Part shown: positions 7,086 through 33,113 of the stretch, one piece after another
How positions within the stretch are numbered: the stretch's first letter is position 1
Layout: every line of letters starts with the position of its first letter
NCBI GenBank assembly: GCA_964491455.1
Contig: CAZBFM010000002.1
Span: 28,947 to 92,946, forward strand
Direction: 5' to 3'
Origin: an uncultured Candidatus Saccharibacteria bacterium
GTDB lineage: Bacteria > Patescibacteriota > Minisyncoccia > 2-02-FULL-40-12 > GWA2-44-9
Length of the DNA stretch: 64,000 nt
The notes under the pieces: model-generated
Databases searched by the model: none
The model's input: only the letters and a program-made list of their open reading frames with translations
What the model was told of the DNA's origin: nothing
Program-made: the position numbers and the translations under genes

Positions 7086-9356
7086 ATGGCTAAAAAAACA
7101 ATCTCCATCCGCGGTATGCACTGCGCGTCATGCGTCCTGCTCATCGAACAAACACTCAAGAGCGTACCCGGCATCACGGAAGCAAATGCGAATCTTGCAA
7201 CGAACACCGCAACAATCACCTTCGACCCCCAGAACGTCACCGATCACGATATAGCGGAAGCCGTCAATAAAACGGGCTATGAAGTAGCCACCGAACAGCA
7301 CGAGGGCATGTCCGCTAGCGAACATTCTGCTCACCTCAAGCGCGAGAGCGCGCAAGAACTCATATCACTTCGACGAAAGGTCATTATATCGCTTGTATTC
7401 GGCGTACTCATCATATGGGGAAGCGTTCCTTGGCTTACCGCAACGGCTCCCTCGCTCCTTACGCAACCGTGGCTACAACTCCTCCTGGCGACTCCCGTCC
7501 AGCTTTGGATTGGCTTGGTCTTCTATCGACCCGCATTACGCGCTGCTCGTCATGGCACCTCAAACATGGACACGCTCGTTGCCATTGGAACAAGTGTCGC
7601 GTTTGCATACTCCACAGTCATCACAGTCGCCCCAACACTTGTGACGCGCATGGGCATCATTGCGATGCCATACTTTGATGTCAGCGTGATCGTCATTGGC
7701 CTCGTACTTCTGGGTCGCTATCTGGAAGCACGCGCAAAATCAGGAACCTCAGAAGCCATCGAAAAACTCATGGGACTGCAGGCAAAAACGGCGCGGGTCA
7801 TTCGCGACGGACAAGAGATTGATATTGCCATCGAACAGGTGATTGTTGGCGACACGATTCGCGTGCGACCGGGAGAGAAGATTCCCGTGGATGGTGTGAT
7901 TACCGAGGGCAGCTCTGCGCTCGATGAATCAATGGTGACGGGTGAAAGCATTCCCGCGAATAAGAGCGTCGGCGATACCGTTATCGGTGCAACGCTGAAC
8001 GTGCAGGGGTCCTTCCTCTTTACCGCTACAAAGATAGGCTCCGAAACGATGCTTGCGAGTATTATCAAACTCGTCCAAGACGCACAGGGGAGCAAAGCGC
8101 CCATTCAACGCTTGGCTGATCGCGTCTCATCGTACTTCGTTCCCGTGGTATTGGTACTCGCCGTTCTGACATTTGTAGTCTGGTATTTCGTCGGCCCATC
8201 CCCCACGCTCCCCTACGCGCTCCTAAACATGGTTGCCGTGCTCGTCATCGCCTGCCCCTGTGCTATGGGACTGGCAACACCCACAGCTATCATGGTCGGA
8301 ACCGGTGCTGGTGCGCAACGTGGAATCTTGATAAAAAATGCAGCAGCACTCGAAGTCGCTCACTCAATCACCGCAGTGCTGTTTGATAAAACAGGAACAC
8401 TCACCGAAGGCAAGCCGCGGGTCACTGGTGTTATCACCGTAGATGGATACACCGAATCAGACATCCTTCGTTTGGACGGAGCACTCGAGCAATCCTCAAG
8501 CCACCCGGTCGCGAAGGCCATCACCGATGAGGCGCGTCACCGAGGAGTCTCCCTCCAGGGATCACCGCAACAGTTTGAGGCCGTCGCCGGATTTGGCATT
8601 CAGGGACTCGTTGAGGGTCAGCAGCTCGTGTCGGGCACTGAACGTTTCATGCAGATGAAAAAGATTGATGTAACTCTTCTGCGCGCACAGATTGATACGC
8701 TCATGGACGGTGGCAACACGCTCACCATCGTTGCTGCCGATGGCATTGTCATCGGAGCCATTGCGATTGCCGATACCATCAAGCCAACTGCGCGACAGAC
8801 GATAGACACGCTCAAAAAAATGGGAGTATCAGTTGCCATGATAACGGGTGATCACGAACGCGTAGCATCATCGGTCGCACACGCACTCGGCATTGATCGC
8901 TACTTTGCGTCTGTGCTCCCCAGCGACAAAGCAAGCTACGTCACTAAACTCCAACGCGAAGGCAACAAGGTTGCCATGGTTGGCGATGGCATCAACGATG
9001 CGCCAGCGCTTGCTGCCTCAGACGTGGGCATCGCCATCGCAACGGGCACTGATGTCGCCATCGAAGCGGCGGGTATCACCCTCGTCAACAAAAACCTCAT
9101 CGCAATTGCAACGACGCTCGCTCTTTCGCGAGCCACCATGCGCACCATCAAACAGAACCTCTTTTGGGCATTTGGGTACAACATCATCCTTATTCCGATT
9201 GCCATGGGAGCTCTCTATCCGTTCACCGGCACGCTCATGAATCCAATGCTTGCATCAGCGGCGATGGCGCTTAGTTCAATTTCCGTGGTGCTCAATTCTC
9301 TAATCCTAAAGAGAAAGGATATACAGCCAAGCGGCACGCCGCGGCTCCGTATGTAA
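7086..9356 (+). CDS. copA: Copper-translocating P1B-type ATPase.
   Basis: N-terminal HMA GMHCASC; the CPC transmembrane metal site ([12 protein letters not shown]); DKTGTLT phosphorylation motif; GDGINDAP hinge; 756 aa. Confidence 0.92.
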
Positions 9357-9506
9357 TCCCACGTCGCCAAGCGGCACGCCGCGGCTCCGTATGTAATCCC
9401 ACGTCGCCAAGCGGCACGCCGCGGCTCCGTATGTAATCCCACGTCGCCAAGCGGCACGCCGCGGCTCCGTATGTAATCCCACGTCGCCAAGCGGCACGCC
9501 GCGGCT
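9326..9506. repeat. Perfect 40-bp tandem repeat of about 4.5 copies (unit ccaagcggcacgccgcggctccgtatgtaatcccacgtcg). The first copy encodes the last residues and TAA stop of copA.
   Basis: Direct reading: four identical units at 9326-9485 and a 21-bp partial fifth. The unit contains the palindrome gccgcggc. There are no spacers, so it is not a CRISPR. Confidence 0.95.
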
Positions 9507-9600
9507 CCTCTGGATATTTCCATGTTGCCTTATGCAACATGGAAATAAAAACGACCCCTCACAGAGAGGGGTCGTGGCTACCACGATGGTAGCGGCTAAC
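9507..9600. terminator. Cluster of three stem-loops between the convergent copA and MYG1-like genes, likely bidirectional terminators.
   Basis: tttccatgttgc-cttat-gcaacatggaaa (12-bp stem) followed by A-run; gacccctc-acag-agaggggtc; gctaccacgatggtagc. Confidence 0.6.
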
Positions 9601-16137: not shown

Positions 16138-17718
16138 ATGGCAACACCAACAATCCTCAAACTCACGGGACAGACACTCACCACACACGACGTACAGGCG
16201 GTCGTTACCCACCCTCGCCTGCAGGTGCGCGTTGCACCCGCCGCTCTCATTGGAATGCGCAAATCCAAAAAACTTCTCGATGCCACTCTCACCGAGCGCA
16301 TTATCTATGGCGTCAATACAGGTTTTGGTCCAATGGCCTCTCATATTATTGGTCGCGATGACCTCCTACAACTCCAGCTCAATCTTGTGCGCAGCCACTC
16401 CAGTGGCATCGGAGCTCCGATTGATTCCAACCTCGTACTTGCGGCAATGGTCATTCGCCTCAACACACTCTCAAAGGGATTTTCGGGCGCGTCCGATGCC
16501 GTCGCCCATCAACTCGAAAAGTTTATCAACGCCCGCATCACTCCTATCATCCCAGAGCACGGCGCTGTTGGAACAAGTGGCGACCTCGTGCAACTCGCAC
16601 ACATTGCACTTGCCCTCATTGGAGAAGGTGAGGTGCACTACCGCGGCGAACGCATGCCGACCGCAACTGCGCTCGCAAAAGAGAAAATTGCACCACTTAC
16701 GCTCGGACCAAAAGAGGGGCTAGCACTGATCAATGGCACCGCTGGAATGACGGCTGTTGCTGCAATCCTCTGTGAAGCGGCGGCACGCATTGTTGCGCTC
16801 AGCCTCCGCACCGGTGCGTGGTCGCTTGATATCGTGGGTGGATTCGACGACAGTATTAGCGAGCGCATTCATGCGGTACGCCCACACGCCGGCCAACGAG
16901 TCGCCGCTGCTGCCCTTCGAGGTCTCGTCGCCAAAAGTGGCCGCATGAAAAATCGCGAAGCATTCAACAAGAAGCACGCTATTTCCGATGAGGTCCACAA
17001 AATCGCCGAAGATGTTCAGGAGATGTACTCCCTTCGATGCATACCGCAGATTGTTGGGCCCGTGCTTGATGCGTTCTGGAGAGTCCGTAGCGACGTCACC
17101 ACGGAAATGAATTCTGCCACTGACAATCCGATTGTGGACTGGGAGCGTGGCGTCTTTCTCCATGGAGGCAACTTTCATGGTGAATACATCGCCGCTGCAG
17201 TCGACTACCTCAAGACTGGCATGATCAAGCTCACTATGCTCAGCGAGCGGCGCATCAATTACTTCATGAATCCTGCAATCAATCATCGATTGCCTCCATT
17301 TGTGAATCTGCACACTCCTGGACTTACCCTCGCGCTCCAAGGCATGCAATTTGTCGCCACCTCCACAGCAGCACATAGTCAATCGTTGGCATTCCCCCAT
17401 CATATTCACTCCATTCCAACAAATGGGGATAACCAAGATGTTGTGAGCATGGGATTTGATGCAGCCCTCATCGCCACCAAGGCAATTGAAAATGCATATG
17501 CCGTCCTTGCTATTGAGATGGTGACACTCGCTCAAGCCACCGATGCTCTGAAGTGCTCTCGCGAACTATCGCCCGAAAATCAGCAACTCTATCGGGCAAT
17601 TCGCAAGCTCACTCCCCCCGTGATCGAAGATCGCCCACTTGCACCTGATCTTGAGCGCATCGTCGCGTTTCTCAAGTCATCACCAACACTGCCCATCGAC
17701 TCACTCAGGAAGCAATGA
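16138..17718 (+). CDS. Aromatic amino-acid ammonia-lyase/aminomutase family (HAL/PAL/TAL, MIO-dependent) homolog.
   Basis: Family-typical GTSGDLVQLAHIAL with Thr-Ser-Gly at the MIO-forming triad (canonical Ala-Ser-Gly), plus NTGFG and the conserved C-terminal fold. 526 aa. Confidence 0.8.
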   Translation: MATPTILKLTGQTLTTHDVQAVVTHPRLQVRVAPAALIGMRKSKKLLDATLTERIIYGVNTGFGPMASHIIGRDDLLQLQLNLVRSHSSGIGAPIDSNLVLAAMVIRLNTLSKGFSGASDAVAHQLEKFINARITPIIPEHGAVGTSGDLVQLAHIALALIGEGEVHYRGERMPTATALAKEKIAPLTLGPKEGLALINGTAGMTAVAAILCEAAARIVALSLRTGAWSLDIVGGFDDSISERIHAVRPHAGQRVAAAALRGLVAKSGRMKNREAFNKKHAISDEVHKIAEDVQEMYSLRCIPQIVGPVLDAFWRVRSDVTTEMNSATDNPIVDWERGVFLHGGNFHGEYIAAAVDYLKTGMIKLTMLSERRINYFMNPAINHRLPPFVNLHTPGLTLALQGMQFVATSTAAHSQSLAFPHHIHSIPTNGDNQDVVSMGFDAALIATKAIENAYAVLAIEMVTLAQATDALKCSRELSPENQQLYRAIRKLTPPVIEDRPLAPDLERIVAFLKSSPTLPIDSLRKQ

Positions 17719-19199
17719 CACCGCGCGACTTGCAAACGTTTTTTGATGCTCACGCACAACGCAATTGGGTGAAGCATTACTTCTCGTTTGACGTTGCGAC
17801 ATTCGAGCGCCTCCTCCACCACCGCGACGAAACCTTTTGGAATACTCTTGGCGCTCGTAGGGCTCTCAAGTTATTTCACGACGCAGCTGTGCGCGTACCC
17901 GCATATAAGGACTTCCTTCGCACCAATCGCATTCGCCATGCAACAGTAAAAACAATCGCAGACTTTGCGCGCGTGCCCCGCACCACCAAGGAGAATTACA
18001 TCAACCGCTATGCACTCAGCGATCGTTGCTGGGATGGCATACTCTCCGCTACCAGCATCATCGCGATGAGCTCCGGGACGAGTGGCGAGCCAAAATTCTG
18101 GCCCCGAGGTGGCTTCTCTGAATTCGAAGCGGCGATCATTCACGAGCTCACGTATCGTTCACTTTTTTCAATTCACAAAAAGAGAACGCTTCTCGTTATT
18201 GGGTTCCCCATGGGTGTGTATGTATCGGGCATCGCCACACTTCTGCCGAGCTGGATGGTAGCGCAGCGAGACTACGACTTGACGATTGTGGCCGCCGGCA
18301 ACAATAAAGTCGACATGCAACGCATCACGCAACACCTCCGAACTGCATTCGATCAAGTCGTTCTTATTGGCCACCCATTCTTCATTAAAGATGTACTCGA
18401 AACGGGCGCAGCGGAAGGTGTTGATTGGAGCACAATCACCACGTCACTTCTGTTCTGTAGTGAAGGATTTAATGAACAGTGGAGGGATCACGTTGCATCT
18501 GTCGCTGGTAGTACGCCCGACTCGGTTCGCATATTCAACACGTATGGCTCGTCGGAGACACTACTCATTGGTCACGAAACACCAGTAAGTATTGCCCTCC
18601 GTAAAACCATGAACGACACATTAACGCCGAACATATTCCAGTACAATCCATTCTTGCGATACCTCGATGTCACCGATGGCATTCTCAACTTTACTCTCAA
18701 CAGCGGAGTGCCCCTCATTAAGTACGACCTCGCCGATGGCGGGACCATCCTTCCTTTTTCAGAGGCAACACAACATCTTTCACCATCGCTTCGTCGGTCT
18801 GCGTGGAAGCTTCCGTTTGTTACGCTCGATGGTCGGCGTGACAATACAATTATCTTCTATGCGGCCAATATCTATCCAGAACACATTCATGCCGCACTCA
18901 ATGACAAGAAATTTTTGCGCTCCATAACGGGCAAATTTGCGATGCGAAAAGAGTACCTGAAAAATAAGGATGAATTCCTAGAAATACACGTAGAGCTTCG
19001 CCCTCGCCAAAAAGTCACCGCAGCACTCGCCACTGCAATTGCCAAGCACGCCACCTCGCGACTATTAGATATCAATATGGAGTACAAATTTCTTTGGTCG
19101 AACCTCGACAAAGACATCCGCCCGCGCGTCATTTTGCACCCCTACCAATGCGAGCCCTATTTCCGCGCCGGACTAAAACCTCGCTATATCATCAAATGA
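17715..19199 (+). CDS. PaaK-like adenylate-forming enzyme (phenylacetate-CoA ligase / F390 synthetase family).
   Basis: SSGTSGEPKFWPR P-loop-like AMP-binding motif, about 490 aa. Its ATGA start overlaps the lyase stop, indicating translational coupling. Confidence 0.65.
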   Translation: MTPRDLQTFFDAHAQRNWVKHYFSFDVATFERLLHHRDETFWNTLGARRALKLFHDAAVRVPAYKDFLRTNRIRHATVKTIADFARVPRTTKENYINRYALSDRCWDGILSATSIIAMSSGTSGEPKFWPRGGFSEFEAAIIHELTYRSLFSIHKKRTLLVIGFPMGVYVSGIATLLPSWMVAQRDYDLTIVAAGNNKVDMQRITQHLRTAFDQVVLIGHPFFIKDVLETGAAEGVDWSTITTSLLFCSEGFNEQWRDHVASVAGSTPDSVRIFNTYGSSETLLIGHETPVSIALRKTMNDTLTPNIFQYNPFLRYLDVTDGILNFTLNSGVPLIKYDLADGGTILPFSEATQHLSPSLRRSAWKLPFVTLDGRRDNTIIFYAANIYPEHIHAALNDKKFLRSITGKFAMRKEYLKNKDEFLEIHVELRPRQKVTAALATAIAKHATSRLLDINMEYKFLWSNLDKDIRPRVILHPYQCEPYFRAGLKPRYIIK

Positions 19200-20341
19200 C
19201 CCCCGTCGACCACCCAACGCTCTTTACGCCACGCATGCCAGCGCATCAATCTGCACTGAGGAAACTGCGCTCCGATGTATCGGTGCGCGTCATTGATACC
19301 TACGAGCACCAACTCGCTGAACTGTACGTGATCCAAAACCCTGCTGTCATTGGGCTGCCACCAGCAGAGCTTGCAACTCGTATAGCGACATACGTAGCTC
19401 GTACTGCGCGACGAGCCACGCTTGAGCAGCAAGGAACCTGGGCCTGGCTTCCCTGGCAGCGAACACTCGTGCATATTCTTCCTGAACGAGAATTCTTTCT
19501 CGTTCGAACCAATCGCAATGGAAATCTCATCACACCACAAGAACAACAACGGTTCTATCGGTGCGTCGTCGGCGTAGCGGGACTATCCGTTGGCGGTAGC
19601 ATTGCCCTCACCCTCGCACTCCAGGGTGGCGCTCGAACTATTCGAATTGCGGACTTCGATTCACTTGAGCTCTCCAACACCAACCGCATACTAGCGGGAG
19701 TACATGAACTCGCCACGCCAAAAACAACCATTGTAGCTCGTCGCATTTGGGAGATGAATCCGTATGCACGCATCACCATCTTTCAAGATGGCCTCACTGA
19801 AAAGAACATACCGTCATTCATGCGAGGCCTTGATGTTATCGTCGACGAGATGGACCAAATGGCAATCAAACAGCTCATTCGCGAACAAGCACGTGCCAAT
19901 AAAGTCGCGCTCGTATCGACTGCCGATAATGGAGATACGAGCGTCGTGGACGTGGAACGCCACGACCTCAAGCAGACTCCGTACTTCCTGGGTCGACTTG
20001 GAGCGACGTCCGTTAAGCAATTCCACTCGATGAATAAACTTCAAATCATCCGCGAAATCACACGTCTCATGGGCCCTGAAAATGTTCCTCCTCGCATGCA
20101 ATCGTCTCTTTCAGAAATCGGCAACACCCTCGTGTCAGTCCCTCAGCTCGGTGGCACCGCACTCATGGGCGCAGCGGCAACCGCATACTGCGTACATCGC
20201 ATCGCCGCTGGCCTTCCGCTCCCATCTGGTCGCTCCATTATTTCTCTCGATGAGAAGCTCGAGCCCGGGCACCAAGCAAGCGCTGCAAAAAATCGTCGCG
20301 CAAAAAATACTCGCATCTTTGCAAAGAACCTCGGCCTGTAG
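19196..20341 (+). CDS. E1-like (ThiF/MoeB family) adenylyltransferase with an N-terminal extension of about 120 aa.
   Basis: Rossmann motif VVGVAGLSVGGSIALTLALQGG...IRIADFDSLELSNTNRI, which is the E1 signature. ATGA overlap with the upstream ligase. Confidence 0.7.
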   Translation: MTPVDHPTLFTPRMPAHQSALRKLRSDVSVRVIDTYEHQLAELYVIQNPAVIGLPPAELATRIATYVARTARRATLEQQGTWAWLPWQRTLVHILPEREFFLVRTNRNGNLITPQEQQRFYRCVVGVAGLSVGGSIALTLALQGGARTIRIADFDSLELSNTNRILAGVHELATPKTTIVARRIWEMNPYARITIFQDGLTEKNIPSFMRGLDVIVDEMDQMAIKQLIREQARANKVALVSTADNGDTSVVDVERHDLKQTPYFLGRLGATSVKQFHSMNKLQIIREITRLMGPENVPPRMQSSLSEIGNTLVSVPQLGGTALMGAAATAYCVHRIAAGLPLPSGRSIISLDEKLEPGHQASAAKNRRAKNTRIFAKNLGL

Positions 20342-20409
20342 CACGTATCCGCAGATGCCATACTACCGTTTTTTTTGGCACGATTTCGCGGTATACTAAA
20401 AATCATCAC

Positions 20410-21444
20410 ATGCGTACCGCCATCGAACACATTCTCGCAGCGGCCGTACTCGCTCCCTCCGGAGACAATTGCCAACCGTGGCGTTTTGAAGTTGCACGCG
20501 ACACCATTGATGTGCACCTCGTGAGTGAGCGAGACACATCGCTCTATGGCGTCGGTCACTTTGCATCCTACATCGCACACGGAGCGCTCTTAGAGAATAT
20601 CGCCATAGCGGCGCGCGCGCAGGGAGTTCAGGCAACTATTTCGGAATTCCCTACGCCACACAATCAGCTCCACACCGCACGAATAACACTCTCGTCGATA
20701 CCCACGCGCCATGATCCTCTAGCCAGTGCGATTGCCGAGCGTTGCTCGAATCGAAAACCATACCTCTCCACACCCTTAACACCGCACCAACGAGATGTGC
20801 TTCGTGAAGCGGGAGGAAACGACACGATCTTCATCGAAGACGAATTAACTCGAAAACTTCTTGCATCCTCGCTGGCGGCAAATGAGAAGGTGCTCTTCGA
20901 AAATAGAGCGATGCATACGTTCTTCTTCGATCACATGCTCTGGACTGCACATGCGGCAGCAGCGAATCCCATTGGATTTCATCCAGCGTCACTCGAGCTC
21001 CCCGCACCAATTTATGGCATATGGCCAGCGTTTCGACATTGGCCAATCATGGCCACCTTAACGTCTCTTGGATTTGCGAATGCAATCGCTTTCGGGAACG
21101 CCCCGATCTATGCTTCAGGAGCAGCTCTCGCCTGTATTACAATCGTCGAGCGATCTGCGCGCGACTATCTTCACAGTGGCCGCACACTCCAACGCCTCTG
21201 GCTAACCGCCACTAACCTTGGGTTGAGTGCACAAATCCTCACAGGCATCCCGCTCCTTATGAATGCAGTTCATGCACGCACACCATGCCTTTCACCAAAG
21301 CATGCGCGCTTCATCGAACGGCACTACGCTCATCTACAACACCTTGTTGGAGCTCCACATGCAGAGATCGCTTTTTTTCTTCGAGTTGGTGTCAGCCCTA
21401 AGCCAAGCGCTCGCACGCCCCGTGCAGCACCCACCATCACATGA
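20410..21444 (+). CDS. Extended nitroreductase-family (FMN-dependent) protein.
   Basis: N-terminal PSGDNCQPWRF nitroreductase motif. Its 344-aa length suggests two nitroreductase-like lobes. The stop overlaps the histidine kinase start (ATGA). Confidence 0.6.
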   Translation: MRTAIEHILAAAVLAPSGDNCQPWRFEVARDTIDVHLVSERDTSLYGVGHFASYIAHGALLENIAIAARAQGVQATISEFPTPHNQLHTARITLSSIPTRHDPLASAIAERCSNRKPYLSTPLTPHQRDVLREAGGNDTIFIEDELTRKLLASSLAANEKVLFENRAMHTFFFDHMLWTAHAAAANPIGFHPASLELPAPIYGIWPAFRHWPIMATLTSLGFANAIAFGNAPIYASGAALACITIVERSARDYLHSGRTLQRLWLTATNLGLSAQILTGIPLLMNAVHARTPCLSPKHARFIERHYAHLQHLVGAPHAEIAFFLRVGVSPKPSARTPRAAPTIT

Positions 21445-23099
21445 CCACACCGATGTCACTCGGACTTATTGGAAGCTCGCTTACTAGTGGATTAGGCAAT
21501 CTCGATCTTGTCGCGATTCTCATCGCCGTCGCGGCGCTCCTCACGCTTGGATTTATCGTGTACTTCAATAATCCGAAGAGTGCAACGAATCGAGCATTCC
21601 TCATGTTCTCGCTCATGACCGTTGCATATGGTTCCGCCAATTTTGCAAGCTACCAAATAACGGACCCCTGGCAGGTACTATGGCTGTTGCGGATCACGAT
21701 GTTTTCGGCCGTCTGGCATGCTGCATCTTTTTTCTATTTATTTTTTGTATTTCCTCGTCAACAAGCCGCACTGCCACGCTGGATCACACTCGGTGCGTTT
21801 CCCGTTGCGATGGTGACGAGCGCACTCACACTTACGCCATATGTGTTTCGCTCTATCCAAGTCGTCTCCCAGGTGGGCTCGGTAACCAATCCAGTGCGCG
21901 GTCCTGCTATCCCGTTTTTCGGAGCCGTAGCGGGCGCATTTGTGCTCGCTGGTCTCGCAGAACTTCTCAAAAAAACGTTCGCGGGTGAAGAGATTCAACG
22001 AAAGCAGGCGCGCGTCATTCTCGCGGGTGCTTCTATGACATTTTTACTCATTCTTGTCTGTAATGTGCTCCTGCCGCTGGCATTCAACATACTGAGATTC
22101 ATACCGCTTGTTCCTATCTTCTTTCTTCCCTTCGTCCTCTTGACCGCACATGCGATTCGCAAATATCGATTCCTGGAAACAAAGGTACTTGCAACCGAAA
22201 TGATCGCGCTCGTCTTGGTCATTCTCAATATGATCGAACTAGTCATCGCAAAGGATCTTGGAACTCTTATATTGCGCGTGGGCGTGTTCTCGGCTGTGCT
22301 GGCATTTAGCATCATGCTCATCAAGTCCATTGTCCGCGAGGTCAACCAGCGCGAACGACTTCGAGCGCTGTCTGACGACCTCCAGAAAGCGAATGCGAAG
22401 CTTACGCAACTGGACACGCTTAAATCTCAATTCTTGTCATTTGCCTCGCATCAACTTCGGACGCCACTAACAGCAATCAAGTGGCAGGCTCAGCTCTTAC
22501 GTGACGGCACCGTGGGGCAACTCCCAGAGAAAGCACTGGAAATTGCGCATGGGATTGAAGAATCGTCACAGCGCATGCTCGAGCTCGTTTCGGAATTCCT
22601 CAACCTCCGAAAACTCGAAGAGGGAAAAATGGAATACTCATTTGAGCCCACCGATATCGCCGAGCTCACATCGCGCATCGTAGAAGACATTCGACCGCTC
22701 GCCTCCCATAAGGGCCTCGAGCTCACATTCGTGAATCATGCTTCGCAATCACTCTGCTCAGTTGACCGACAAAAATTCTCGCAAGTCGTTCAAAATCTCG
22801 TCGATAATGCCATCAAATACACCGACCATGGCAGCGTTCAGATCTTCATAAACAACACCGCGGAAAAAAGGATTCGCATCGTGGTGACAGATACTGGCCA
22901 TGGGATAGACCCAACCGTTATTAGCTCGCTCTTTGAGCAGTTTGTTCGCGATAAGAAAGAAGCAAAAACAATTGAAGGCACAGGGCTTGGCCTTTACATC
23001 GCCAAGCAGATGATGGACGCCCACCAGGGAAGCATCCTTGCCTCGTCTCCGGGAAAAGGAAAGGGCAGCACATTCACGATTGAACTGCCAACGCTCTAG
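21441..23099 (+). CDS. Sensor histidine kinase with a multi-pass membrane sensor domain.
   Basis: At least 6 TM helices, then an H-box SHQLRTPLTAI, an N-box, DTGHGIDP (G1) and GTGLGLYIAKQ (G2). Confidence 0.85.
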   Translation: MTTPMSLGLIGSSLTSGLGNLDLVAILIAVAALLTLGFIVYFNNPKSATNRAFLMFSLMTVAYGSANFASYQITDPWQVLWLLRITMFSAVWHAASFFYLFFVFPRQQAALPRWITLGAFPVAMVTSALTLTPYVFRSIQVVSQVGSVTNPVRGPAIPFFGAVAGAFVLAGLAELLKKTFAGEEIQRKQARVILAGASMTFLLILVCNVLLPLAFNILRFIPLVPIFFLPFVLLTAHAIRKYRFLETKVLATEMIALVLVILNMIELVIAKDLGTLILRVGVFSAVLAFSIMLIKSIVREVNQRERLRALSDDLQKANAKLTQLDTLKSQFLSFASHQLRTPLTAIKWQAQLLRDGTVGQLPEKALEIAHGIEESSQRMLELVSEFLNLRKLEEGKMEYSFEPTDIAELTSRIVEDIRPLASHKGLELTFVNHASQSLCSVDRQKFSQVVQNLVDNAIKYTDHGSVQIFINNTAEKRIRIVVTDTGHGIDPTVISSLFEQFVRDKKEAKTIEGTGLGLYIAKQMMDAHQGSILASSPGKGKGSTFTIELPTL

Positions 23100-23137
23100 C
23101 TGGAATTCGTCATTATTACTGTGGTATACTTGGGGGT

Positions 23138-23533
23138 ATGGACAACGCAAAACCCCTCATTCTCGTTACCGATGATGACGCGAGCATTCGGAATATTCTC
23201 CACATAAAACTGGAAGCCGCTGGCTTTCGAGTATCCGAAGCAACGAATGGACAGGAAGCGATCGATTTTTGCAAAAAGGAAAAGCCGGCACTTATCGTTA
23301 TGGACGTGGGGATGCCGGTCATGTCAGGCACAGAGACAGTAACTGCAATAAAGAAAGACGATGCGATAAAGGATATTCAAATTATATTCTTAAGCAATTT
23401 CGGAGAGGAAAACGAGCTCAATGCGTGGCTTGATCAGAAGTTCGCAAAAGAACTCGGCGCTGTAGATTACATGAAAAAGTCGGAGGATATATCCAGGATC
23501 ATCGAGAAGATAACGTCTCTCGTTCATGTCTAG
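23138..23533 (+). CDS. Stand-alone response-regulator receiver (CheY-like).
   Basis: ILVTDDDASIRN...LIVMDVGMPVMSG...KK carries the receiver Asp/Lys signature. 131 aa. Confidence 0.8.
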   Translation: MDNAKPLILVTDDDASIRNILHIKLEAAGFRVSEATNGQEAIDFCKKEKPALIVMDVGMPVMSGTETVTAIKKDDAIKDIQIIFLSNFGEENELNAWLDQKFAKELGAVDYMKKSEDISRIIEKITSLVHV

Positions 23534-25256
23534 CGATGGCGCAAAAACTGTTCTTATCATCGAAGATAACTTCTTTATGGCGCAACTATTGCGCGAGAAG
23601 CTGGAACACCAAGGCTTTGCGGCAATCCATGCTCAAAATGGGAACATCGGCGTCGATGAAGCGCTCAAGAAAACCCCAGCGCTAATACTCGTCGATATCC
23701 CCCTCTCCGGCGACATGGACGGCTTTGCAACACTTACTGCACTCCGAGGCATCCAGTCCCTCGAACACGTACCCGTCCTCACGCTATTCACCACAAAGGA
23801 TCAAGGCGATATCGAAAAGCTGGAAAAAATAGGCTTTGCGGAGTACCTCGTAAAAGCAGATGCAAACGCCGATGCCATCGTTCTGAAAGTCGTCGAGCTC
23901 ATCACCGGAGTTTTACAAAAATCGACCAAGATCATCGCGCCGGGCGAAAAAGAACTGAAGACGGTGCCACCGAAGGTACGCGCAGTGATAGCAGAATCAG
24001 GCAACGAAGGATCACAGTATGTCGCGCGCGCCGCAACTATCAAGGCGGAAGTAGCAACCATGTTGAAACTTCCCGAAGCGGAAATATCCATCATCACACT
24101 TGTCGATGACATGATGATATTTGCATTTCTAGCCAGAGCGTCAGACGTTCACCTTGAGCCGTTTGAAGAGACTCTCGTTGCTCGTATGCGTATCGATGGG
24201 ATCCTGAGCGACGAATTCACATTCCCTAAGGCGCTCCACGCCGGCATCATTTCGCGCATCAAAGTATTAGGCGGCATGCGCACCGATGAACACCAAGCCG
24301 CTCAAGATGGACGCTTCCAGATGACAATCCCAGATATTCAAAAGCAATTCGATGTTCGCGTCAGTATTATCCCGACATATTACGGTGAAAATGGAGTCTT
24401 GCGTTTACTCGCAGAACAAACATCTATCAGCTCACTTGATAATTTAGCCTTTACTGATTTCGATCGTGCTCGCATCCGCAAGGCCGTCAAAACACCCTAC
24501 GGCATGATCCTCGCTACAGGACCTACGGGATCCGGAAAAACCACCACGCTCTACACCATTCTACGAGAGCTCAACACGCGAGCAGTCTCCGTCATCACCA
24601 TCGAAGATCCGATTGAGTACTCACTCGAGGGCGTCGATCAAATACAGGTCAACACCCGTACGGGCCTCACCTTTGCCACCGGTCTTCGATCTATCCTTCG
24701 ACAAGACCCCAACATCATTATGGTTGGAGAGATTCGCGATGAAGAAACCGCATCGATCGCAATCAATGCCGCGCTCACGGGACACAAGCTCTTAAGCACC
24801 ATCCACACGAACGACGCGGCAACAACACTTCCCCGCTTGCTTGATATGGGCATCGAGCCATTTCTTGTGGCGTCAACGGTCAATGTTGCCGTCGGACAGC
24901 GTTTAGTTCGCATGATATGCAATGAGTGCAAGGTACCCCGACGGATCACAGAGGGCGAGTTTAATGCTCTCAAAGAAAACATTCCGGAATCGATTCTCGG
25001 AGATCATCACGATTACTTTCAGGGCAAGGGCTGCGATGCGTGTGGGCAAACGGGCTATCGCGGACGTATGGGTATCTATGAGATACTAGAGATGAGCGAC
25101 TTCATTCGTGAGGCGCTGATGAGGCGCGCGGACGCTGGAGAAATTAAAAAGATTGCAGTCAAAAATGGCATGACCACGCTCCTAGAAGATGGATTCAAAA
25201 AAGCAGTGGAAGGTCGCACCACCATCGAAGAACTACTTCGCGTTATTCATGAATAA
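23526..25256 (+). CDS. pilB: Type IV pilus/T2SS assembly ATPase (PilB/GspE family) with an N-terminal receiver domain.
   Basis: An N-terminal REC fold (KTVLIIEDNFF...LILVDIPLSGDMDG) precedes a GspE core. The core carries Walker A GPTGSGKTTT, the Asp box and His box (GEIRDEETA...TIHTNDA), and a tetracysteine motif CNEC...CDACG. Confidence 0.85.
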   Translation: MSSDGAKTVLIIEDNFFMAQLLREKLEHQGFAAIHAQNGNIGVDEALKKTPALILVDIPLSGDMDGFATLTALRGIQSLEHVPVLTLFTTKDQGDIEKLEKIGFAEYLVKADANADAIVLKVVELITGVLQKSTKIIAPGEKELKTVPPKVRAVIAESGNEGSQYVARAATIKAEVATMLKLPEAEISIITLVDDMMIFAFLARASDVHLEPFEETLVARMRIDGILSDEFTFPKALHAGIISRIKVLGGMRTDEHQAAQDGRFQMTIPDIQKQFDVRVSIIPTYYGENGVLRLLAEQTSISSLDNLAFTDFDRARIRKAVKTPYGMILATGPTGSGKTTTLYTILRELNTRAVSVITIEDPIEYSLEGVDQIQVNTRTGLTFATGLRSILRQDPNIIMVGEIRDEETASIAINAALTGHKLLSTIHTNDAATTLPRLLDMGIEPFLVASTVNVAVGQRLVRMICNECKVPRRITEGEFNALKENIPESILGDHHDYFQGKGCDACGQTGYRGRMGIYEILEMSDFIREALMRRADAGEIKKIAVKNGMTTLLEDGFKKAVEGRTTIEELLRVIHE

Positions 25257-25279
25257 ACCATAACTACAAGCGGAGGGAT

Positions 25280-26356
25280 ATGAAATGGTTTGACTCACTC
25301 AGCTCATTGGGATTTCGCTTGTCACTCAAAGACAAGATGCTGTTTGCGCGTCACATGGAAATGATGACCCGCTCGGGCATGCAAATACTCGACGCCCTCG
25401 AGATTCTCAAGAAGCAAACCAAATCCAAACCATTTATCTCAATGGTCGACCATCTCATCGAAGATGTTCGCAATGGCCAGAACTTATCTGTTGGGATGCA
25501 GCGCTATAAGAATGTGTTCGGTGAATTCTTCATCAATCTTATTCGCGTTGGAGAATCATCAGGAACACTTTCGGAAAATTTTGCCTACCTCGCCACCGAG
25601 CTGGGCAAGAAATCTGAGCTTCAGAAAAAAATTCGTGGGGCAATGGCGTATCCTCTCGTCATTCTCTTTGCCACGTTTGGCATATCGGGAATTCTTTCGT
25701 TCGTCATATTCCCAAAAATTCTTCCCGTTCTTCGAAGCCTCAACACAACACTCCCTCTCTCTACTCGTATTTTCATTTCCATATCGGAATTTATGATTTC
25801 CAATGGACTCCTTCTCTTCGGAGTTGTTATTGGCGGCATCGTGCTTGGGACCCTCCTGTTACGCATCGGTGCGATCCGGCTCTTCTGGCATCGTATTATC
25901 CTCGCAACACCTTTTGTGAATCGCATGTCAATCGACATTAATATTATCAGCATATCTCGCACACTCAATCTCCTCCTCCGCGGAGGCGTCAAAATAGTCC
26001 AGGCACTAGAAATCACCTCCGACACACTAACGAATCTCGTATATCAGACTGAACTACGGATCATTGCGCAAGCAGTGCAACGAGGAGAACCCATGAGTAA
26101 ATCGATGATCCTCAATGAGCGACTCTTCCCTCCTACGTTTAGTCAGATGGCCGCAGTTGGTGAAAACACGGGAAAGCTCGATGAGACGCTCGTGTTCTTA
26201 GCGGACTTCTATGAAAGCGAAATGGATAATTCGACAAAGAGCATGAGCAACGTATTAGAGCCGGCGATGTTGCTGGCAATGGGAGGCATTGTCATGTTCG
26301 TCGCCATCTCGATCATCACACCCATTTATTCGGTCACGCAAACACTTGGTCGCTAA
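25280..26356 (+). CDS. pilC: Type IV pilus inner-membrane platform protein (PilC/GspF family).
   Basis: Two GspF-type repeats, 3 TM segments, and a position immediately after pilB. Confidence 0.8.
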   Translation: MKWFDSLSSLGFRLSLKDKMLFARHMEMMTRSGMQILDALEILKKQTKSKPFISMVDHLIEDVRNGQNLSVGMQRYKNVFGEFFINLIRVGESSGTLSENFAYLATELGKKSELQKKIRGAMAYPLVILFATFGISGILSFVIFPKILPVLRSLNTTLPLSTRIFISISEFMISNGLLLFGVVIGGIVLGTLLLRIGAIRLFWHRIILATPFVNRMSIDINIISISRTLNLLLRGGVKIVQALEITSDTLTNLVYQTELRIIAQAVQRGEPMSKSMILNERLFPPTFSQMAAVGENTGKLDETLVFLADFYESEMDNSTKSMSNVLEPAMLLAMGGIVMFVAISIITPIYSVTQTLGR

Positions 26357-26357
26357 T

Positions 26358-28115
26358 ATGAAACAACGAACGGGACAACGGGGGTTCACCGTCCTTGAGA
26401 CGTTAATCGGAATCGCGATTCTTTCTATCGTGAGCACCGCTGTGTATTTTTCGTATTCCAATATCCTCGATATCGTTCAGGCGGCGCAGTACAACAACGC
26501 GGCGCTAAGCATCATGGAATCAAACGTCGAATCAGTTCGAAATATGCGCTACGAAGATATCGGCGTCATTGGCGGAGCTCCCGCGGGTCTCATCCCCCAG
26601 GTAACATCCGTGACGCTCGGTACAACGACCTACACGCTCCACACGTATGTTCGCAATATTGACGATTCCTTCGACGGAACTCTGGGTGGAACGCCCAACG
26701 ATACCGCCCCAGCTGATTATAAGCTCGTTGAATTCCAAGTTACCTGCGATAGTTGCACTCGCTATCGCGAGCTCACCATGGCAACCTATGTAGCCCCAAA
26801 GAATCTCGAGAGTGCCAGCAAAAATGGCAACCTCTTTGTTCGCGTGCTCGATGCGTCGGGTATTCCCCTGAGTGGCGTGACTGTCCGGGTTACGAATAAC
26901 AAGGTGACACCCGCTATCGATCTCACGGATACGACGAATACGAATGGCATCCTGCAACTCGTCGGGATAGCTACGAGCTCTTCAGGGTATCACCTAGTTG
27001 CGTCAAAAACCGGCTACAGCACCGATCAGACTTATCCCATAGGCGCACCTGCGAATCCGGTAAAGCCGGACGCCACGGTCGCGAATCAACAGCTTACCAT
27101 CTCAACTCTTGCCATCGATGCACTTGGGTCACTACGCATTCAAGCCCGCACAGCATATTGTCAAAACGTGCCCTCTTTTGATTTTCTTATTACCGGAGCA
27201 CAGCTCATTGGCACGAAACCGGACGTGCCTAAATATTCCGTACCGCTCACCACAGACACCAATGGGTCGTACGTGAACCAAAGCCTCGAATGGGATTTCT
27301 ATTCGATTCGCGCAACCGATGCTTCCTATGATCTCGCTGCCACCGTCTCATCGCTCTCGTTCTCACTAGCACCGAGTGAGTCAAAAACTCTCTCGTGGAT
27401 GCTCGCTGATAAATCAAGCAATAGCACAACGCTATCAGTCGTCGATCAATCAGGGACTCCAATCTCGGGTGCAACGGTGCGAGTCACAGGCACCTCCTAT
27501 GATCAATCACGCACCACGAGCTACTATCCGTTCACACAAACAACCTGGGCAAGCAATGAGTTCACCAGCAAAAGCACACTCATGAGCACGGCAACGCCCG
27601 GATTGCTCACGCTGGGTATGATTGCTGGATCGTACGCGAGCGCTAGCAATGAGTGGCTCATTTCGAACACGATAGATCTTGGCACCTCCAGCACATCACT
27701 CGGGGTTCTACGCTGGTCTCCCATAGTTCAACCTCCGACCGTAGGCACAGGTGCGTTGCAGATACAAATCGCAGGCAACTCTGATAACGCGACATGGAAT
27801 TGGGTCGGCCCTGATGGAACACCTGGAACATTTTTCTCGACACCTGGGCAACTCATTCCTGAAAGTCTTCGTGGGTCCCGCTACCTCCGCTACCGCGTCG
27901 TCATGGACACTGCTGACGTCAATCAATCACCTCAACTCGATGATATATCGCTGGAATTTTCTTCTGACTGCGTTCCCCTTGGGCAAGTCTACTTTAATGG
28001 CCTCGCCCTTGGCAGCTACACCGTGACCATTTCTCATCCGAATTATCAGGCGTTTACCGGGACCCTCGTCATCTCAAGCGACTGGAGCCGGTCTACATTC
28101 ACACTCTTACCATGA
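26358..28115 (+). CDS. Large prepilin-like protein (about 585 aa; pseudopilin or putative tip adhesin).
   Basis: Class III signal peptide KQRTGQRGFTVLETLIGIAIL (G/FTxxE cleavage-methylation motif), followed by Ig-like/carboxypeptidase-regulatory-like beta domains. The start was moved to the ATG at 26358, just after the pilC stop. Confidence 0.7.
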   Translation: MKQRTGQRGFTVLETLIGIAILSIVSTAVYFSYSNILDIVQAAQYNNAALSIMESNVESVRNMRYEDIGVIGGAPAGLIPQVTSVTLGTTTYTLHTYVRNIDDSFDGTLGGTPNDTAPADYKLVEFQVTCDSCTRYRELTMATYVAPKNLESASKNGNLFVRVLDASGIPLSGVTVRVTNNKVTPAIDLTDTTNTNGILQLVGIATSSSGYHLVASKTGYSTDQTYPIGAPANPVKPDATVANQQLTISTLAIDALGSLRIQARTAYCQNVPSFDFLITGAQLIGTKPDVPKYSVPLTTDTNGSYVNQSLEWDFYSIRATDASYDLAATVSSLSFSLAPSESKTLSWMLADKSSNSTTLSVVDQSGTPISGATVRVTGTSYDQSRTTSYYPFTQTTWASNEFTSKSTLMSTATPGLLTLGMIAGSYASASNEWLISNTIDLGTSSTSLGVLRWSPIVQPPTVGTGALQIQIAGNSDNATWNWVGPDGTPGTFFSTPGQLIPESLRGSRYLRYRVVMDTADVNQSPQLDDISLEFSSDCVPLGQVYFNGLALGSYTVTISHPNYQAFTGTLVISSDWSRSTFTLLP

Positions 28116-28708
28116 GGCTTTACGGATTCACCCTTATAGAAATACTCGTGGCAATGACGATCACGTCTATGACCCTTGTTTTTGTAACGTATTTCTCACT
28201 CAATATTTCGAGCTTTGGAACTGACCTAAATTCTCGACTAGAATCAGAATACGAGCTTCAGCTGGCCCTTCGCACCATGTCATCGGAAATTAGATCTATG
28301 GGACCGGGTAGTAATGGCGCTTACCCCATAGCCACAGCAACGGCAACGACGTTTATGTTTTATAGCGACATCGATGGAGATGGTTCATTCGAGCAAGTGC
28401 GCTACTTCCTCGAGGGAACGGTTCTTAAAAAAGGAGTGACTCGAGCAACAGCAACGGAGCCGATCCTGTATCCGTCAGCAAACGAAACAGTCATTGAAAT
28501 CGCGCACTACCTTACCTCGACATCTCTCTTTTCCTTCTTCGCTGAAGGCCATCCTGACATTATTGCCCCGCTCGCAACGCCCGTGACACTCTCTCAAATT
28601 CGCCTCGTGCGTATTACCGGCACTGTTGATCGCGACACCATGCAGCCGCCACTCCCAAGCACGCTCTCAACGTCTATCACCATTCGAAATTTAAGAGGCG
28701 AAATATGA
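28112..28708 (+). CDS. Minor pilin (prepilin-type N-terminal domain).
   Basis: MRLYGFTLIEILVAMTITS prepilin motif. Confidence 0.7.
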   Translation: MRLYGFTLIEILVAMTITSMTLVFVTYFSLNISSFGTDLNSRLESEYELQLALRTMSSEIRSMGPGSNGAYPIATATATTFMFYSDIDGDGSFEQVRYFLEGTVLKKGVTRATATEPILYPSANETVIEIAHYLTSTSLFSFFAEGHPDIIAPLATPVTLSQIRLVRITGTVDRDTMQPPLPSTLSTSITIRNLRGEI

Positions 28709-30147
28709 CAACAAGCACGCTCGCACCTCAAAAGGGTCAGATGACGCTCTATGTCCTGATATTTAGCGCAGTCGCTCTTGTCGTGCTCTCAGGTTTCGTA
28801 CTATGGGCAGATAGTAATATACGAATTGTATTTCGTGACGTCGATAAATCGCAAGCCTTCATGGCGTCCGAGGCGGGCATTGAATATTATCGCTGGCATC
28901 TTGCGCATGCGCCAAGCGATTATAAAGACGGAACCCAGTCCAGTGGTCCCTACACACACGACCTGAAGGACAAGGATGGAAACGTGATTGCCGCATTCTC
29001 GCTTGGCATAACCGCACCACCAACCGGATCAACTGTCGTCACCCTGAATTCAACGGGAACGGTAGCCGCGAATTCCACGGTGAGCAAAATCATTGAGGCC
29101 AAGATGGCAATCCCATCATTTGCGAAGTATGCCGCTGTCATCGGTTCAGAAGTACGATTCGGTGAAGGAACCGATCTCTATGGCCCCATTCACAGCAATG
29201 GAGGCGTACGCATGGATGGTATCGCCCATAACATGGTTACCAGCGCGGTGGCAACGTACGACGACCCCGACCATAACGGTGGCAATGAATTTGGCGTTCA
29301 CACGCATATATCACCAGTCGATCCGCTGCCACCAGCAGCCACACCGAAACGAAGTGACATTTTTATGACAGGACGATCGTTTCCAGTCGCACCCGTTGAT
29401 TTTCTTGGCATAGCACAAGACCTCTCTTCAATGAAAACCATTGCGAATGCTAACCAATCATACTGGAAGCCATCGGGTGCGAAAGGATATGAAATTATAC
29501 TGAAAACAAATGACACCTATGACCTCTATAAGGTCACTTCGCTCGTCGCGGCGCCATCAGGATGTACAAACTCCCAAAATCAAACCGGTTGGGGCACCTG
29601 GAGCATCTCGGCCAAAACACTCATCGGCAATAAGCCGATTCCATCCAGCGGTGTTATCTTTGTCGAAGACGACGTATGGGTAAGCGGTCAAATCTCTACA
29701 GCACGCGTTACGATCGCTTCCGCCAGATTCCCCGACAATGCTAGTACTCGCTCGAGTATCACCATTAACAACGACCTGAAGTACTCGTCGTATTCCGGCT
29801 CAGATGTCATCGCGTTGATCGCTCAAGACAACATAAATATTGGCATGGTATCAGCAACAACGCTCCGCATTGATGCCGCCCTCATGGCAGAAAACGGGAG
29901 AGTGGGACGTTACTATTACAATCCCCCCACCAACAAGAACAATTGTGGACCTTATCATTCACGCAGTTCCATCACAAGCTTTGGCATGCTCGCTTCAAAT
30001 CAACGCTATGGCTTTGCGTATACGGACGGAACCGGCTACATCACTCGCACCATCATTTACGATGCTAATCTCTTATATGGACCACCTCCGAGCTTCCCAC
30101 TCACGGCTGACTTCTACACGCCGATTTTCTGGAACGAAAAAAAGTAG
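28705..30147 (+). CDS. PilX-like or pilus-associated protein with an N-terminal hydrophobic anchor.
   Basis: QKGQMTLYVLIFSAVALVVL pilin-like N-terminus lacking Glu5, followed by a roughly 440-aa extracellular region. Confidence 0.5.
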   Translation: MTTSTLAPQKGQMTLYVLIFSAVALVVLSGFVLWADSNIRIVFRDVDKSQAFMASEAGIEYYRWHLAHAPSDYKDGTQSSGPYTHDLKDKDGNVIAAFSLGITAPPTGSTVVTLNSTGTVAANSTVSKIIEAKMAIPSFAKYAAVIGSEVRFGEGTDLYGPIHSNGGVRMDGIAHNMVTSAVATYDDPDHNGGNEFGVHTHISPVDPLPPAATPKRSDIFMTGRSFPVAPVDFLGIAQDLSSMKTIANANQSYWKPSGAKGYEIILKTNDTYDLYKVTSLVAAPSGCTNSQNQTGWGTWSISAKTLIGNKPIPSSGVIFVEDDVWVSGQISTARVTIASARFPDNASTRSSITINNDLKYSSYSGSDVIALIAQDNINIGMVSATTLRIDAALMAENGRVGRYYYNPPTNKNNCGPYHSRSSITSFGMLASNQRYGFAYTDGTGYITRTIIYDANLLYGPPPSFPLTADFYTPIFWNEKK

Positions 30148-30268
30148 AATATGTGGACATCTCGAAGAGCGTTTGCTGATATACTGTACGCATAAGGTCG
30201 ATAGCTGGGACGCTCCATGCATGGCGCCTCAGTGATATGTATTCAAGTGTAATAAATTATTTTTATCT

Positions 30269-30718: not shown

Positions 30719-30744
30719 CACTCGTTCGAGTAGGAGGAATACAT

Positions 30745-30775
30745 CACAACGCCCGAAAGGGCGTTGTGTGTTTGT
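30745..30775 (+). terminator. Rho-independent terminator after the major pilin gene.
   Basis: acaacgccc-gaaa-gggcgttgt stem-loop followed by GTGTTTGTG. Confidence 0.65.
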
Positions 30776-30789
30776 GATATACTTGGCAT

Positions 30790-32935: not shown

Positions 32936-32957
32936 GGCGTGTACAAACTATCTGCTG

Positions 32958-33030: not shown

Positions 33031-33041
33031 GTATACCGCGG

Positions 33042-33113
33042 TGGGCGATCTAGGAATCGGACCTAGGACCTCTGTCTTATCAGGACAGCGTTCTACCACT
33101 GAACTAATCGCCC
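33042..33113 (-). tRNA. tRNA-Ile (anticodon GAU).
   Basis: Reverse complement GGGCGATTAGTTCAGTGGTAGAACGCTGTCCTGATAAGACAGAGGTCCTAGGTTCGATTCCTAGATCGCCCA, with anticodon loop CT-GAT-AA. Confidence 0.9.

Follow-up and report, generated by a model that had tools for sequence, protein, structure and literature searches.

Which product could require four tightly coupled enzyme genes that run directly into a gene for a membrane sensor kinase? The question is raised by a 64,000-nucleotide (nt) stretch of contig CAZBFM010000002.1, from an uncultured Candidatus Saccharibacteria bacterium, which we call the window. The four genes lie at 16138-21444. A first-pass annotation assigned them to an aromatic amino-acid lyase, a PaaK-like ligase, an E1/ThiF-like enzyme and a nitroreductase, and it did not recognize the combination as a described pathway. 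The families stand: three are matched by Pfam and NCBIfam models, and the ligase is placed by its PaaK fold and a weak PaaK match. The idea that the combination is like no described pathway is not supported. The E1-like enzyme and the nitroreductase correspond to a characterized oxazolone synthetase split into two genes, an enzyme that acts on small N-acyl amino acids. We lean towards reading the whole cassette as a self-contained pathway for an oxazolone (azlactone)-type molecule, tied genetically to its own membrane sensor kinase.

Layout of the cassette

All genes of the cassette are on the forward strand, and their translational coupling is as first annotated. The first gene (16138-17718, 526 amino acids (aa), PF00221) encodes an aromatic amino-acid ammonia-lyase dependent on 4-methylideneimidazol-5-one (MIO), predicted to act on tyrosine. 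It overlaps the ligase gene (17715-19199, 494 aa) by an ATGA at 17715. The ligase is a PaaK-fold adenylate-forming enzyme of the ANL superfamily and belongs to a Patescibacteria-wide family. A second ATGA at 19196, also read directly from the junction sequence, joins it to the gene for the ThiF/E1-like ATP-dependent cyclase (19196-20341, 381 aa from the ATG), which corresponds to the N-terminal half of an Rv1355c/TrzS-type oxazolone synthetase. After 68 nt (20342-20409) comes the gene for the C-terminal half, an Acg-like flavin-dependent oxidase of the nitroreductase superfamily (20410-21444, 344 aa). A third ATGA, at 21441, had not been listed before; it couples the oxidase gene to the gene for the histidine kinase (21441-23099, 552 aa). 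The gaps among the four enzyme genes are therefore 0 and 68 nt, which leaves no room for a peptide gene inside the cassette.

The cyclase and oxidase as a probable split oxazolone synthetase

The first oxazolone synthetases were described in 2020-2021, and work in 2023-2025 added those of Mycobacterium tuberculosis. Acid and methanol open the oxazolone ring (PMC12856293). Rv1355c, also named TrzS, carries out an ATP-dependent cyclization and then an O2-dependent desaturation that turn N-acyl-Trp into an oxazolone (Kleetz et al.; PMC12856293). TyzB and TyzC of M. tuberculosis do the same chemistry on N-acyl-Tyr (PMC10404671), and OxzB of Pseudoalteromonas rubra does it on N-acyl-Phe (bioRxiv 10.1101/2020.06.11.147165).

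The ThiF-like enzyme matches PF00899 with an expectation value (E) of 5e-23 and the Rv1355c family, NF005901, with E 3e-98 (329.8 bits, profile positions 13-350). ThiF and MoeB equivalogs reach only 45-70 bits against these 330. The oxidase matches a later part of the same profile, with its residues 4-339 on positions 376-712 (E 4e-46, 157.5 bits). It also matches the Acg family NF047509 (E 2e-41) and has the nitroreductase N-terminal motif. The curated cut-off of NF005901 is 476 bits for the whole protein, and it does not apply directly here because the two halves score separately. Orthologues in which ThiF and oxidase are fused score 500.1 bits, above this cut-off, and 474.2 bits, just under it.

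A Rhodococcus plasmid "Rv1355c family protein" is 39% identical to the ThiF-like enzyme over 276 residues and 25% identical to the oxidase over 301 residues. In a five-sequence alignment with actinobacterial members the shared features are the pre-Rossmann segment PW...VH.L...F..R..RN.N.IT..EQ, the ATP motifs, the catalytic Asp (D220 in the window, D217 in TrzS), APSGxNxQPW, RxxNR and a conserved Gln. The motifs GLSVG, ADFDxLxLSNxNR and VDEMD (220) of the ThiF-like enzyme align with these members and are invariant in 30 orthologues. The conserved features of the oxidase are APSGxNxQPW, RxxNR, Q274 and R325. The nearest solved sequence to the ThiF-like enzyme is TcdA, an ATP-dependent cyclodehydratase, and its top structural neighbour is AclA (9egb), for which a literature search found no paper. 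The closest solved structure to the oxidase is Acg (2ymv), and the oxidase part of TrzS is also reported nearest to Acg (PMC12856293).

The ThiF-like enzyme begins with a conserved extension of about 110 aa, modelled as mixed alpha/beta at a predicted local distance difference test score (pLDDT) above 90. This extension was initially likened to a peptide clamp. It is common to the actinobacterial TrzS-family proteins and thus looks like a family feature of small-molecule enzymes. We argue that the ThiF-like enzyme and the oxidase very probably act as an oxazolone-synthetase-type pair, with the oxidase as the predicted C-alpha/C-beta desaturase.

A related protein is found on a plasmid of Streptomyces sp. 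NBC_01471 (L048, 4917-6715). This stand-alone ThiF protein also has the N-terminal extension and shares 38% identity with the E1 of Patescibacteria. An overlapping GNAT gene follows it and no nitroreductase gene adjoins it. It may be a further variation on N-acyl amino acid cyclization, one that lacks the oxidase.

A predicted source of the N-acyl amino acid

The lyase matches Lyase_aromatic (PF00221) over the entire profile (positions 1-466 of 466, E 1e-155). Its top NCBIfam model is the flexirubin tyrosine ammonia-lyase FlxA (NF053541), at 573.5 bits and below the cut-off of 700. Histidase models give about 460-465 bits, under their cut-offs of 524 and 539 (hutH, TIGR01225, gives 464.6 against 539). 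Among solved proteins, its best relative is a tyrosine aminomutase, SgTAM. The motif NLVRSHSSGIG, which holds His87, is nearly the same as NLVRSHSAGVG in SgTAM, which holds His93, the residue that contacts the tyrosine phenol. A second motif, NGDNQDVVSMG, is identical in the two proteins. Histidase has Glu at the position where Tyr-type enzymes have Gln, and the window lyase has the Gln. Catalytic Tyr57 and the MIO triad Thr146-Ser147-Gly148 are present and conserved. The Thr-Ser-Gly triad had been singled out in the first-pass annotation; it is indeed there, but it is not an oddity of the window, since 34 of 38 aligned orthologues have it. His87 and the Asn-Gln pair are kept in every aligned orthologue. 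Both statements refer to orthologues outside three Microgenomates loci. We predict a Tyr-type lyase that supplies the unsaturated aryl acid p-coumarate. It had been proposed that the lyase and ligase activate an acid of the coumarate or cinnamate type, and this is plausible.

The ligase is harder to place. A Pfam search of it gave no match. Against the PaaK model TIGR02155 it has E 1e-9 and 37.2 bits, compared to a cut-off of 646. Its scores against CoA-ligase equivalogs are 20-37 bits where the cut-offs are 520-646, and there is a faint match to FlxY. Judged by these scores, the database name "phenylacetate-CoA ligase" on its homologues is not justified. Foldseek with an AlphaFold model (pLDDT 87) gives BT_0428 and PaaK1 as top matches, with template modelling (TM) scores of 0.68/0.78 and 17% identity. 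Next come a 2-hydroxyisobutyryl-CoA (2-HIB-CoA) ligase and the amide ligase ClxA (E 1e-13, about 14% identity). The adenylation core is invariant in 28 homologues: SSGTxG at 119-124 (SSGTSGEP), YGxSE at 277-281 (YGSSE), D341, R374 and K488. Homologues at about 50% identity number in the hundreds and are nearly all from Patescibacteria; the ligase profile collects 863 cluster representatives at E<=1e-30.

Two papers on ClxA describe it as a PaaK-fold amide/ester ligase that does not require coenzyme A (CoA) (PMC12519233, PMC9400959). Coupling without CoA therefore has a precedent in this fold. We predict that the ligase of the cassette adenylates the acid released by the lyase and couples this acid to an amino acid. 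That the lyase and ligase together supply the N-acyl amino acid seems to us somewhat more probable than the contrary.

Labels from outside the Patescibacteria are attached to two of the ligase homologues. One is P0098, assigned to Gammaproteobacteria. The other is L023, from a Bryobacteraceae-labelled bin, which has nothing of the cassette except the lyase and a disrupted ligase. Mis-binning of the contigs or rare transfer could explain these labels.

Conservation, fusions and variants of the cassette

Loci were compared using tblastn and clustering of open reading frames (ORFs). Exact-sequence look-ups with the window ligase and with P0001, which is 100% identical to it, gave no contig, and gene context was taken from homologues. 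A scan of one genome per species returned 42 loci; with two further contexts the total is 42 distinct loci, and 37 of these are not cut by a contig end. The order lyase-ligase-ThiF-oxidase-(methyltransferase)-seven-transmembrane (7TM) kinase is found on about 40 independent Patescibacteria contigs at 45-55% identity. The flanks differ between loci (DnaK/DnaJ, tRNA synthetases, RmuC and others). This linkage is far beyond chance. The loci come from Paceibacterota/Parcubacteria, Doudna-, Kaiser-, Roizman- and Gottesmanbacteria, bins labelled Saccharibacteria and the one bin labelled Bryobacteraceae. The cassette of one of them, L005 from a Paceibacterota metagenome-assembled genome, shares 94-99% identity with that of the window.

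The strict order lyase-ligase-ThiF-oxidase-kinase is seen in 25 of the 37 uncut loci. A class I methyltransferase dependent on S-adenosylmethionine (SAM) stands between oxidase and kinase in eight loci. The lyase gene is directly upstream of the ligase gene in 39 of all 42. Across about 40 loci the recurring families are the lyase, ligase, ThiF, oxidase, kinase, receiver (REC), methyltransferase and TrmB; no N-acyltransferase of the OxzA/TyzA/TrzA type recurs there. The first-pass annotation had remarked that the window has neither a YcaO nor an obvious precursor peptide, and its relatives are no different: in 40 loci there is no YcaO, ThiS/MoaD-like carrier, GG-ending carrier or conserved small ORF with the cassette. 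The small ORFs that do recur are shadow frames of the REC, methyltransferase, tryptophanyl-tRNA synthetase (TrpRS), RmuC and PilB genes.

Several cassette genes are fused in relatives. Lyase and ligase are one protein in L046 (1024 aa), and ThiF and oxidase are one protein in L021, L035 and L036 (726-747 aa). The ligase and ThiF are fused in either order, as ThiF-ligase in P0284 (880 aa) and as ligase-ThiF in P0288 (863 aa). An ELFV dehydrogenase is fused to the ligase in P0364 (847 aa) and to ligase-ThiF in P0277 (1242 aa). These last two belong to a second type of cassette. It consists of the oxidase, the dehydrogenase-ligase protein with or without ThiF, an alpha/beta-hydrolase and a HisKA_7TM kinase. 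A third type, in Microgenomates, has a lyase like phenylalanine ammonia-lyase (PAL) with an Ala-Ser-Gly triad, and a 7TM-GAF kinase. The ligase, ThiF, oxidase and 7TM kinase are constant in all three types; what varies is the enzyme that removes the amino group. Either an MIO lyase or an ELFV dehydrogenase can precede the ligase, which fits a role in supplying a deaminated acid. This pattern of variants and fusions is the one expected if the deaminated acid is the substrate of the ligase, the ligase product is the substrate of the cyclase, and the kinase is part of the system.

The kinase and its possible outputs

No partner of the cassette is more constant than the kinase, which supports the earlier suggestion that the product might be a signal tied to it. 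It is in the locus in 31 of the 37 uncut cases and a HisKA_7TM kinase is in both of the other variants. Its gene often overlaps the last enzyme gene by 4 nt. The window kinase has the domains HisKA_7TM, HisKA and HATPase_c and no PAS or photoactive yellow protein (PYP) domain, so its sole sensor part is the seven-helix membrane domain HisKA_7TM. The Microgenomates kinases carry an added GAF domain. We consider it a real possibility, if short of probable, that the kinase responds to the cassette product. It is more doubtful that the oxazolone is the cognate ligand of the co-encoded kinase and hence a self-produced signal.

Some genomes have two or three HisKA_7TM paralogues round the cassette. 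L038 (5032-8240, 14712-16343) has two such kinases upstream of the lyase and one downstream, and L052 (12733-14901, 18423-18544) has a second one downstream.

About 17 loci have REC-only genes adjoining the cassette on its upstream or downstream side. The locus comparison found only these REC-only proteins, and no DNA-binding response regulator, to be conserved there. In the window the next gene after the kinase encodes a stand-alone CheY-like receiver (23138-23533, forward strand, PF00072, E 5e-22), a probable phosphoacceptor. It is followed by a gene for a receiver fused to a PilB-type type IV pilus ATPase (23526-25256, forward strand, Response_reg and T2SSE, E 5e-118). A link to pilins had been raised at the outset, and it is not a general feature. 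The window, L005, L013 and L019 are the only loci with pilus genes after the kinase. REC-PilB is likely a lineage-specific output of the kinase, and the fusion suggests that phosphorylation directly controls this pilus assembly ATPase. The region 23526-32418 continues from REC-PilB to PilC and several pilin-like genes with a type IV prepilin N-terminus (e.g. 30269-30718).

A proposed pathway

We propose the following pathway from homology and fusions. Steps 3 and 4 are based on family membership with characterized enzymes; steps 1, 2 and 5 are drawn from active-site residues, fusions and conserved adjacency. In step 1 the MIO lyase would deaminate an aromatic amino acid, most likely L-Tyr to p-coumarate. 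In step 2 the PaaK-fold ligase would adenylate p-coumarate and couple it to the alpha-amino group of an amino acid. This would yield an N-acyl amino acid and bypass the acyl-CoA-dependent N-acyltransferase of the known systems. In step 3 the ThiF-like enzyme would adenylate the carboxylate of the N-acyl amino acid, and the amide oxygen would close the 5(4H)-oxazolone ring. In step 4 the Acg-like flavoenzyme would desaturate C-alpha/C-beta to give an arylidene (2-styryl-4-arylidene) oxazolone. If both halves come from Tyr the product would be 2-(4-hydroxystyryl)-4-(4-hydroxybenzylidene)oxazol-5-one (C18H13NO4). A SAM methyltransferase or an alpha/beta-hydrolase may tailor it in some relatives. 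In step 5 this lipophilic, electrophilic product would be sensed by the 7TM histidine kinase or act on it. The kinase would then phosphorylate REC-only proteins and, in the window lineage, also the REC-PilB pilus ATPase.

Objections and alternative explanations

Several points count against this pathway. The known oxidases of the Acg/TrzS type use O2, and many Patescibacteria live without it. In two loci, L018 and L045, the kinase comes after ThiF with no oxidase gene in between. The residues of the flavin mononucleotide (FMN) site in M. smegmatis TrzS, R540 and Q651, do not map with certainty onto the oxidase. Numbering by way of a Mycolicibacterium plasmid homologue is not transferable, so only the catalytic Asp and Gln274 are assignable. 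Tyr415 of SgTAM is replaced by Phe in the window lyase. The lyase is under every NCBIfam equivalog cut-off, so the choice of Tyr over His or Phe, and of lyase over aminomutase, turns on few residues. The ligase product could be a CoA thioester that is used by an unlinked acyltransferase. Lastly, adjacency does not tell a kinase that senses the product from one that regulates the genes or one that is modified by the product.

One can picture the oxazolone, or an N-acyl dehydroamino acid, as an end product in its own right. It would be a pigment or ultraviolet (UV) screen, an antioxidant, an antimicrobial or a membrane component, and the kinase would regulate its expression on some other cue. 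Stress-related roles have been proposed for the known oxazolones, whose physiological role is unresolved (PMC12856293), and the known tyrazolones and tryptazolones absorb at 360-400 nm. There is also a promoter-like element inside the cassette. However, regulation of expression sits poorly with the receivers, as only REC-only proteins are conserved beside the cassette. The kinase is retained through three enzyme line-ups, often in a 4-nt overlap with the last enzyme gene, and its sensor is purely a membrane domain, which suits a lipophilic ligand. We therefore regard an end product with no signalling role as unlikely, although it is the alternative we take most seriously. A different scenario, raised in the first-pass annotation, is modification of a peptide or protein. 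The E1 would adenylate the C-terminus of a peptide or protein, as in a ribosomally synthesized and post-translationally modified peptide (RiPP) pathway of the MccB/PaaA style or with a ubiquitin-like carrier. The nitroreductase would act as a dehydrogenase and coumaroyl would be put onto a peptide, a pilin or the kinase. This scenario is very unlikely. The E1 and oxidase fall in the small-molecule Rv1355c/TrzS family, and the extension that was taken for a peptide clamp comes with that family. The 40 loci offer no conserved small ORF, GG-ending carrier or YcaO to go with it, the gaps are too short, and the pilus genes are lineage-specific.

The lyase and ligase could also be detached from the rest. 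A tyrosine ammonia-lyase (TAL) and a p-coumarate ligase are the known route to the PYP chromophore, and here they would make p-coumaroyl-CoA for such a chromophore or something like flexirubin, with the ThiF and oxidase genes unrelated and merely in the same operon. FlxA as the best lyase model and the faint FlxY match of the ligase speak for this. Nevertheless, fused proteins of the kinds ligase-ThiF and dehydrogenase-ligase-ThiF connect the ligase with the cyclase, the ligase falls hundreds of bits short of the CoA-ligase cut-offs, and the kinase lacks a PAS or PYP domain. We give this route little credence. The least credible scenario is amino-acid catabolism or housekeeping, with a histidase-like lyase and unrelated ThiF (thiamine, molybdopterin) and nitroreductase genes. 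In its favour, the hutH/histidase models score 460-465 bits on the lyase, which also has the Ser-His motif in common with histidase. However, these scores stay under the cut-offs and Gln replaces the histidase Glu. The ThiF/MoeB equivalogs are far outscored by the Rv1355c family. The loci compared have no urocanase or ThiS/MoaD gene. The first-pass annotation had named a plain histidase beside housekeeping genes that do not co-occur as the case that would undo its proposal; what we find is genes that stay together in about 40 genomes. Histidine catabolism, ThiS/MoaD activation and peptide modification of the MccB or thiazole/oxazole-modified microcin (TOMM) type were all rejected on scores, missing partners and TrzS-family membership.

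Comparison with known systems

The closest known system is TrzA/TrzS (Rv1356c/Rv1355c) of M. tuberculosis and relatives, which makes N-acyl tryptazolones. TrzS is in the same NCBIfam family, NF005901, as the window pair. Both have the N-terminal extension, the ATP motifs and the catalytic Asp, and some Patescibacteria orthologues have the same fusion. The gene neighbours are alike in that they include signalling genes: cyclic di-GMP genes are near trzAS in M. tuberculosis (PMC12856293) and a GGDEF gene is near the Rhodococcus plasmid copy. The window differs in having the halves as separate genes, and identity is only about 25-39%. It also has no TrzA-type N-acyltransferase; it has the MIO lyase and PaaK-fold ligase instead, and the 7TM kinase as a fixed partner. 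In TyzACB (Rv2336-Rv2338c) the ThiF protein TyzB and the nitroreductase-superfamily oxidase TyzC are encoded by separate adjacent genes, as in the window. TyzACB and OxzAB, which make tyrazolones and phenazolones, carry out ATP-dependent cyclization and desaturation of an N-acyl aromatic amino acid, which in the window is predicted from the genes. Their acyl group is a fatty acyl from acyl-CoA, attached by an acyltransferase like acyl-homoserine lactone (AHL) synthases, whereas the predicted donor in the window is a deaminated amino acid activated by the ligase. In the de Rond preprint there is no mention of a gene context with a lyase, a ligase or a kinase (bioRxiv 10.1101/2020.06.11.147165).

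The front end resembles the FlxA/FlxY pair of flexirubin and the pair for the PYP chromophore, in which a Tyr-type MIO lyase is followed by an adenylate-forming ligase. However, the window ligase is outside the 4-coumarate-CoA ligase family and has a PaaK fold with 17% identity to PaaK. The ligase-ThiF fusions in relatives also set it apart, and there are no polyketide genes or PYP. ClxA of the closoxazole pathway has the same fold and is a precedent for CoA-independent coupling of an aryl acid (PMC9400959, PMC12519233). Its substrates and pathway differ, and amide formation by the window ligase is a prediction.

In Vibrio, the pairs CqsA/CqsS and LuxM/LuxN have an autoinducer synthase beside a polytopic membrane kinase. 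The arrangement is similar in that enzymes for a lipophilic molecule are encoded beside a histidine kinase with a purely membrane-embedded sensor, but there is no homology of the enzymes or of the sensor domain.

Implications

The ultra-small bacteria of the Candidate Phyla Radiation (CPR) have tiny genomes, very little biosynthesis and a host-attached lifestyle. A conserved five-gene investment of about 7 kb in hundreds of lineages is large for such genomes, so the cassette likely matters for that lifestyle. A literature search found nothing relevant on this gene combination, on oxazolones in Patescibacteria, on ammonia-lyases in CPR or on HisKA_7TM ligands. The enzyme pair is known. The front end of lyase or dehydrogenase plus ligase, the fixed 7TM kinase partner and the wide distribution in Patescibacteria are apparently undescribed.

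The TrzS study names the role of oxazolones as the main open question, notes their resemblance to signalling molecules and speculates about signalling (PMC12856293). An oxazolone enzyme pair tied to a membrane sensor kinase in three cassette variants leads to a testable producer-receptor hypothesis and may be a first testable clue to oxazolone function. If the hypothesis is true, the self-produced signal would represent a new chemical class, and no system for cell-cell or cell-host signalling would have been defined earlier in CPR/Patescibacteria. In the window lineage the signal would control type IV pili through the REC-PilB ATPase. The cassette would also be an alternative route to N-acyl amino acids, in which a deaminating enzyme and an ATP-dependent ligase replace the acyl-CoA transferase. 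Such a route predicts oxazolones with aromatic, conjugated acyl groups, which have not been reported before. In structure, a 2-styryl-4-arylidene oxazolone resembles the chromophores of GFP and Kaede. One could speculate that it binds or acylates the 7TM domain as a light-absorbing chromophore and makes the kinase a new kind of photoreceptor, but we think this highly improbable.

Other features of the window

The 68-nt gap inside the cassette (20342-20409) has a match to the promoter consensus, TTGGCA-17-AAAAAT. It must be noted that a scan for consensus promoters and terminators gave matches no more frequent than in shuffled sequence. The octamer GGTATACT is 12 nt before the ATG of the oxidase gene (20390-20397) and 7 nt before the REC gene at 23138 (23123-23130). 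Three more copies are on the reverse strand (41920-41927, 49397-49404 and 59071-59078), which makes five in the window where 0.54 are expected. It may be a -10-like promoter element or a leader element of the source organism.

The 16S rRNA gene (42375-43881, reverse strand) is about 9.2 kb from a tRNA-Ile/tRNA-Ala pair (32957-33113, reverse strand) that normally follows it. No 23S rRNA was detected within the 64 kb. Given both, the rRNA genes appear to be unlinked.

A perfect tandem repeat lies at 9326-9525, with about 4.6 copies of the 40-nt unit GCCAAGCGGCACGCCGCGGCTCCGTATGTAATCCCACGTC. It begins within the last codons of a copper P-type ATPase gene (7086-9356) and extends into the intergenic sequence beyond. 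Either a genuine minisatellite or an assembly artefact could account for it.

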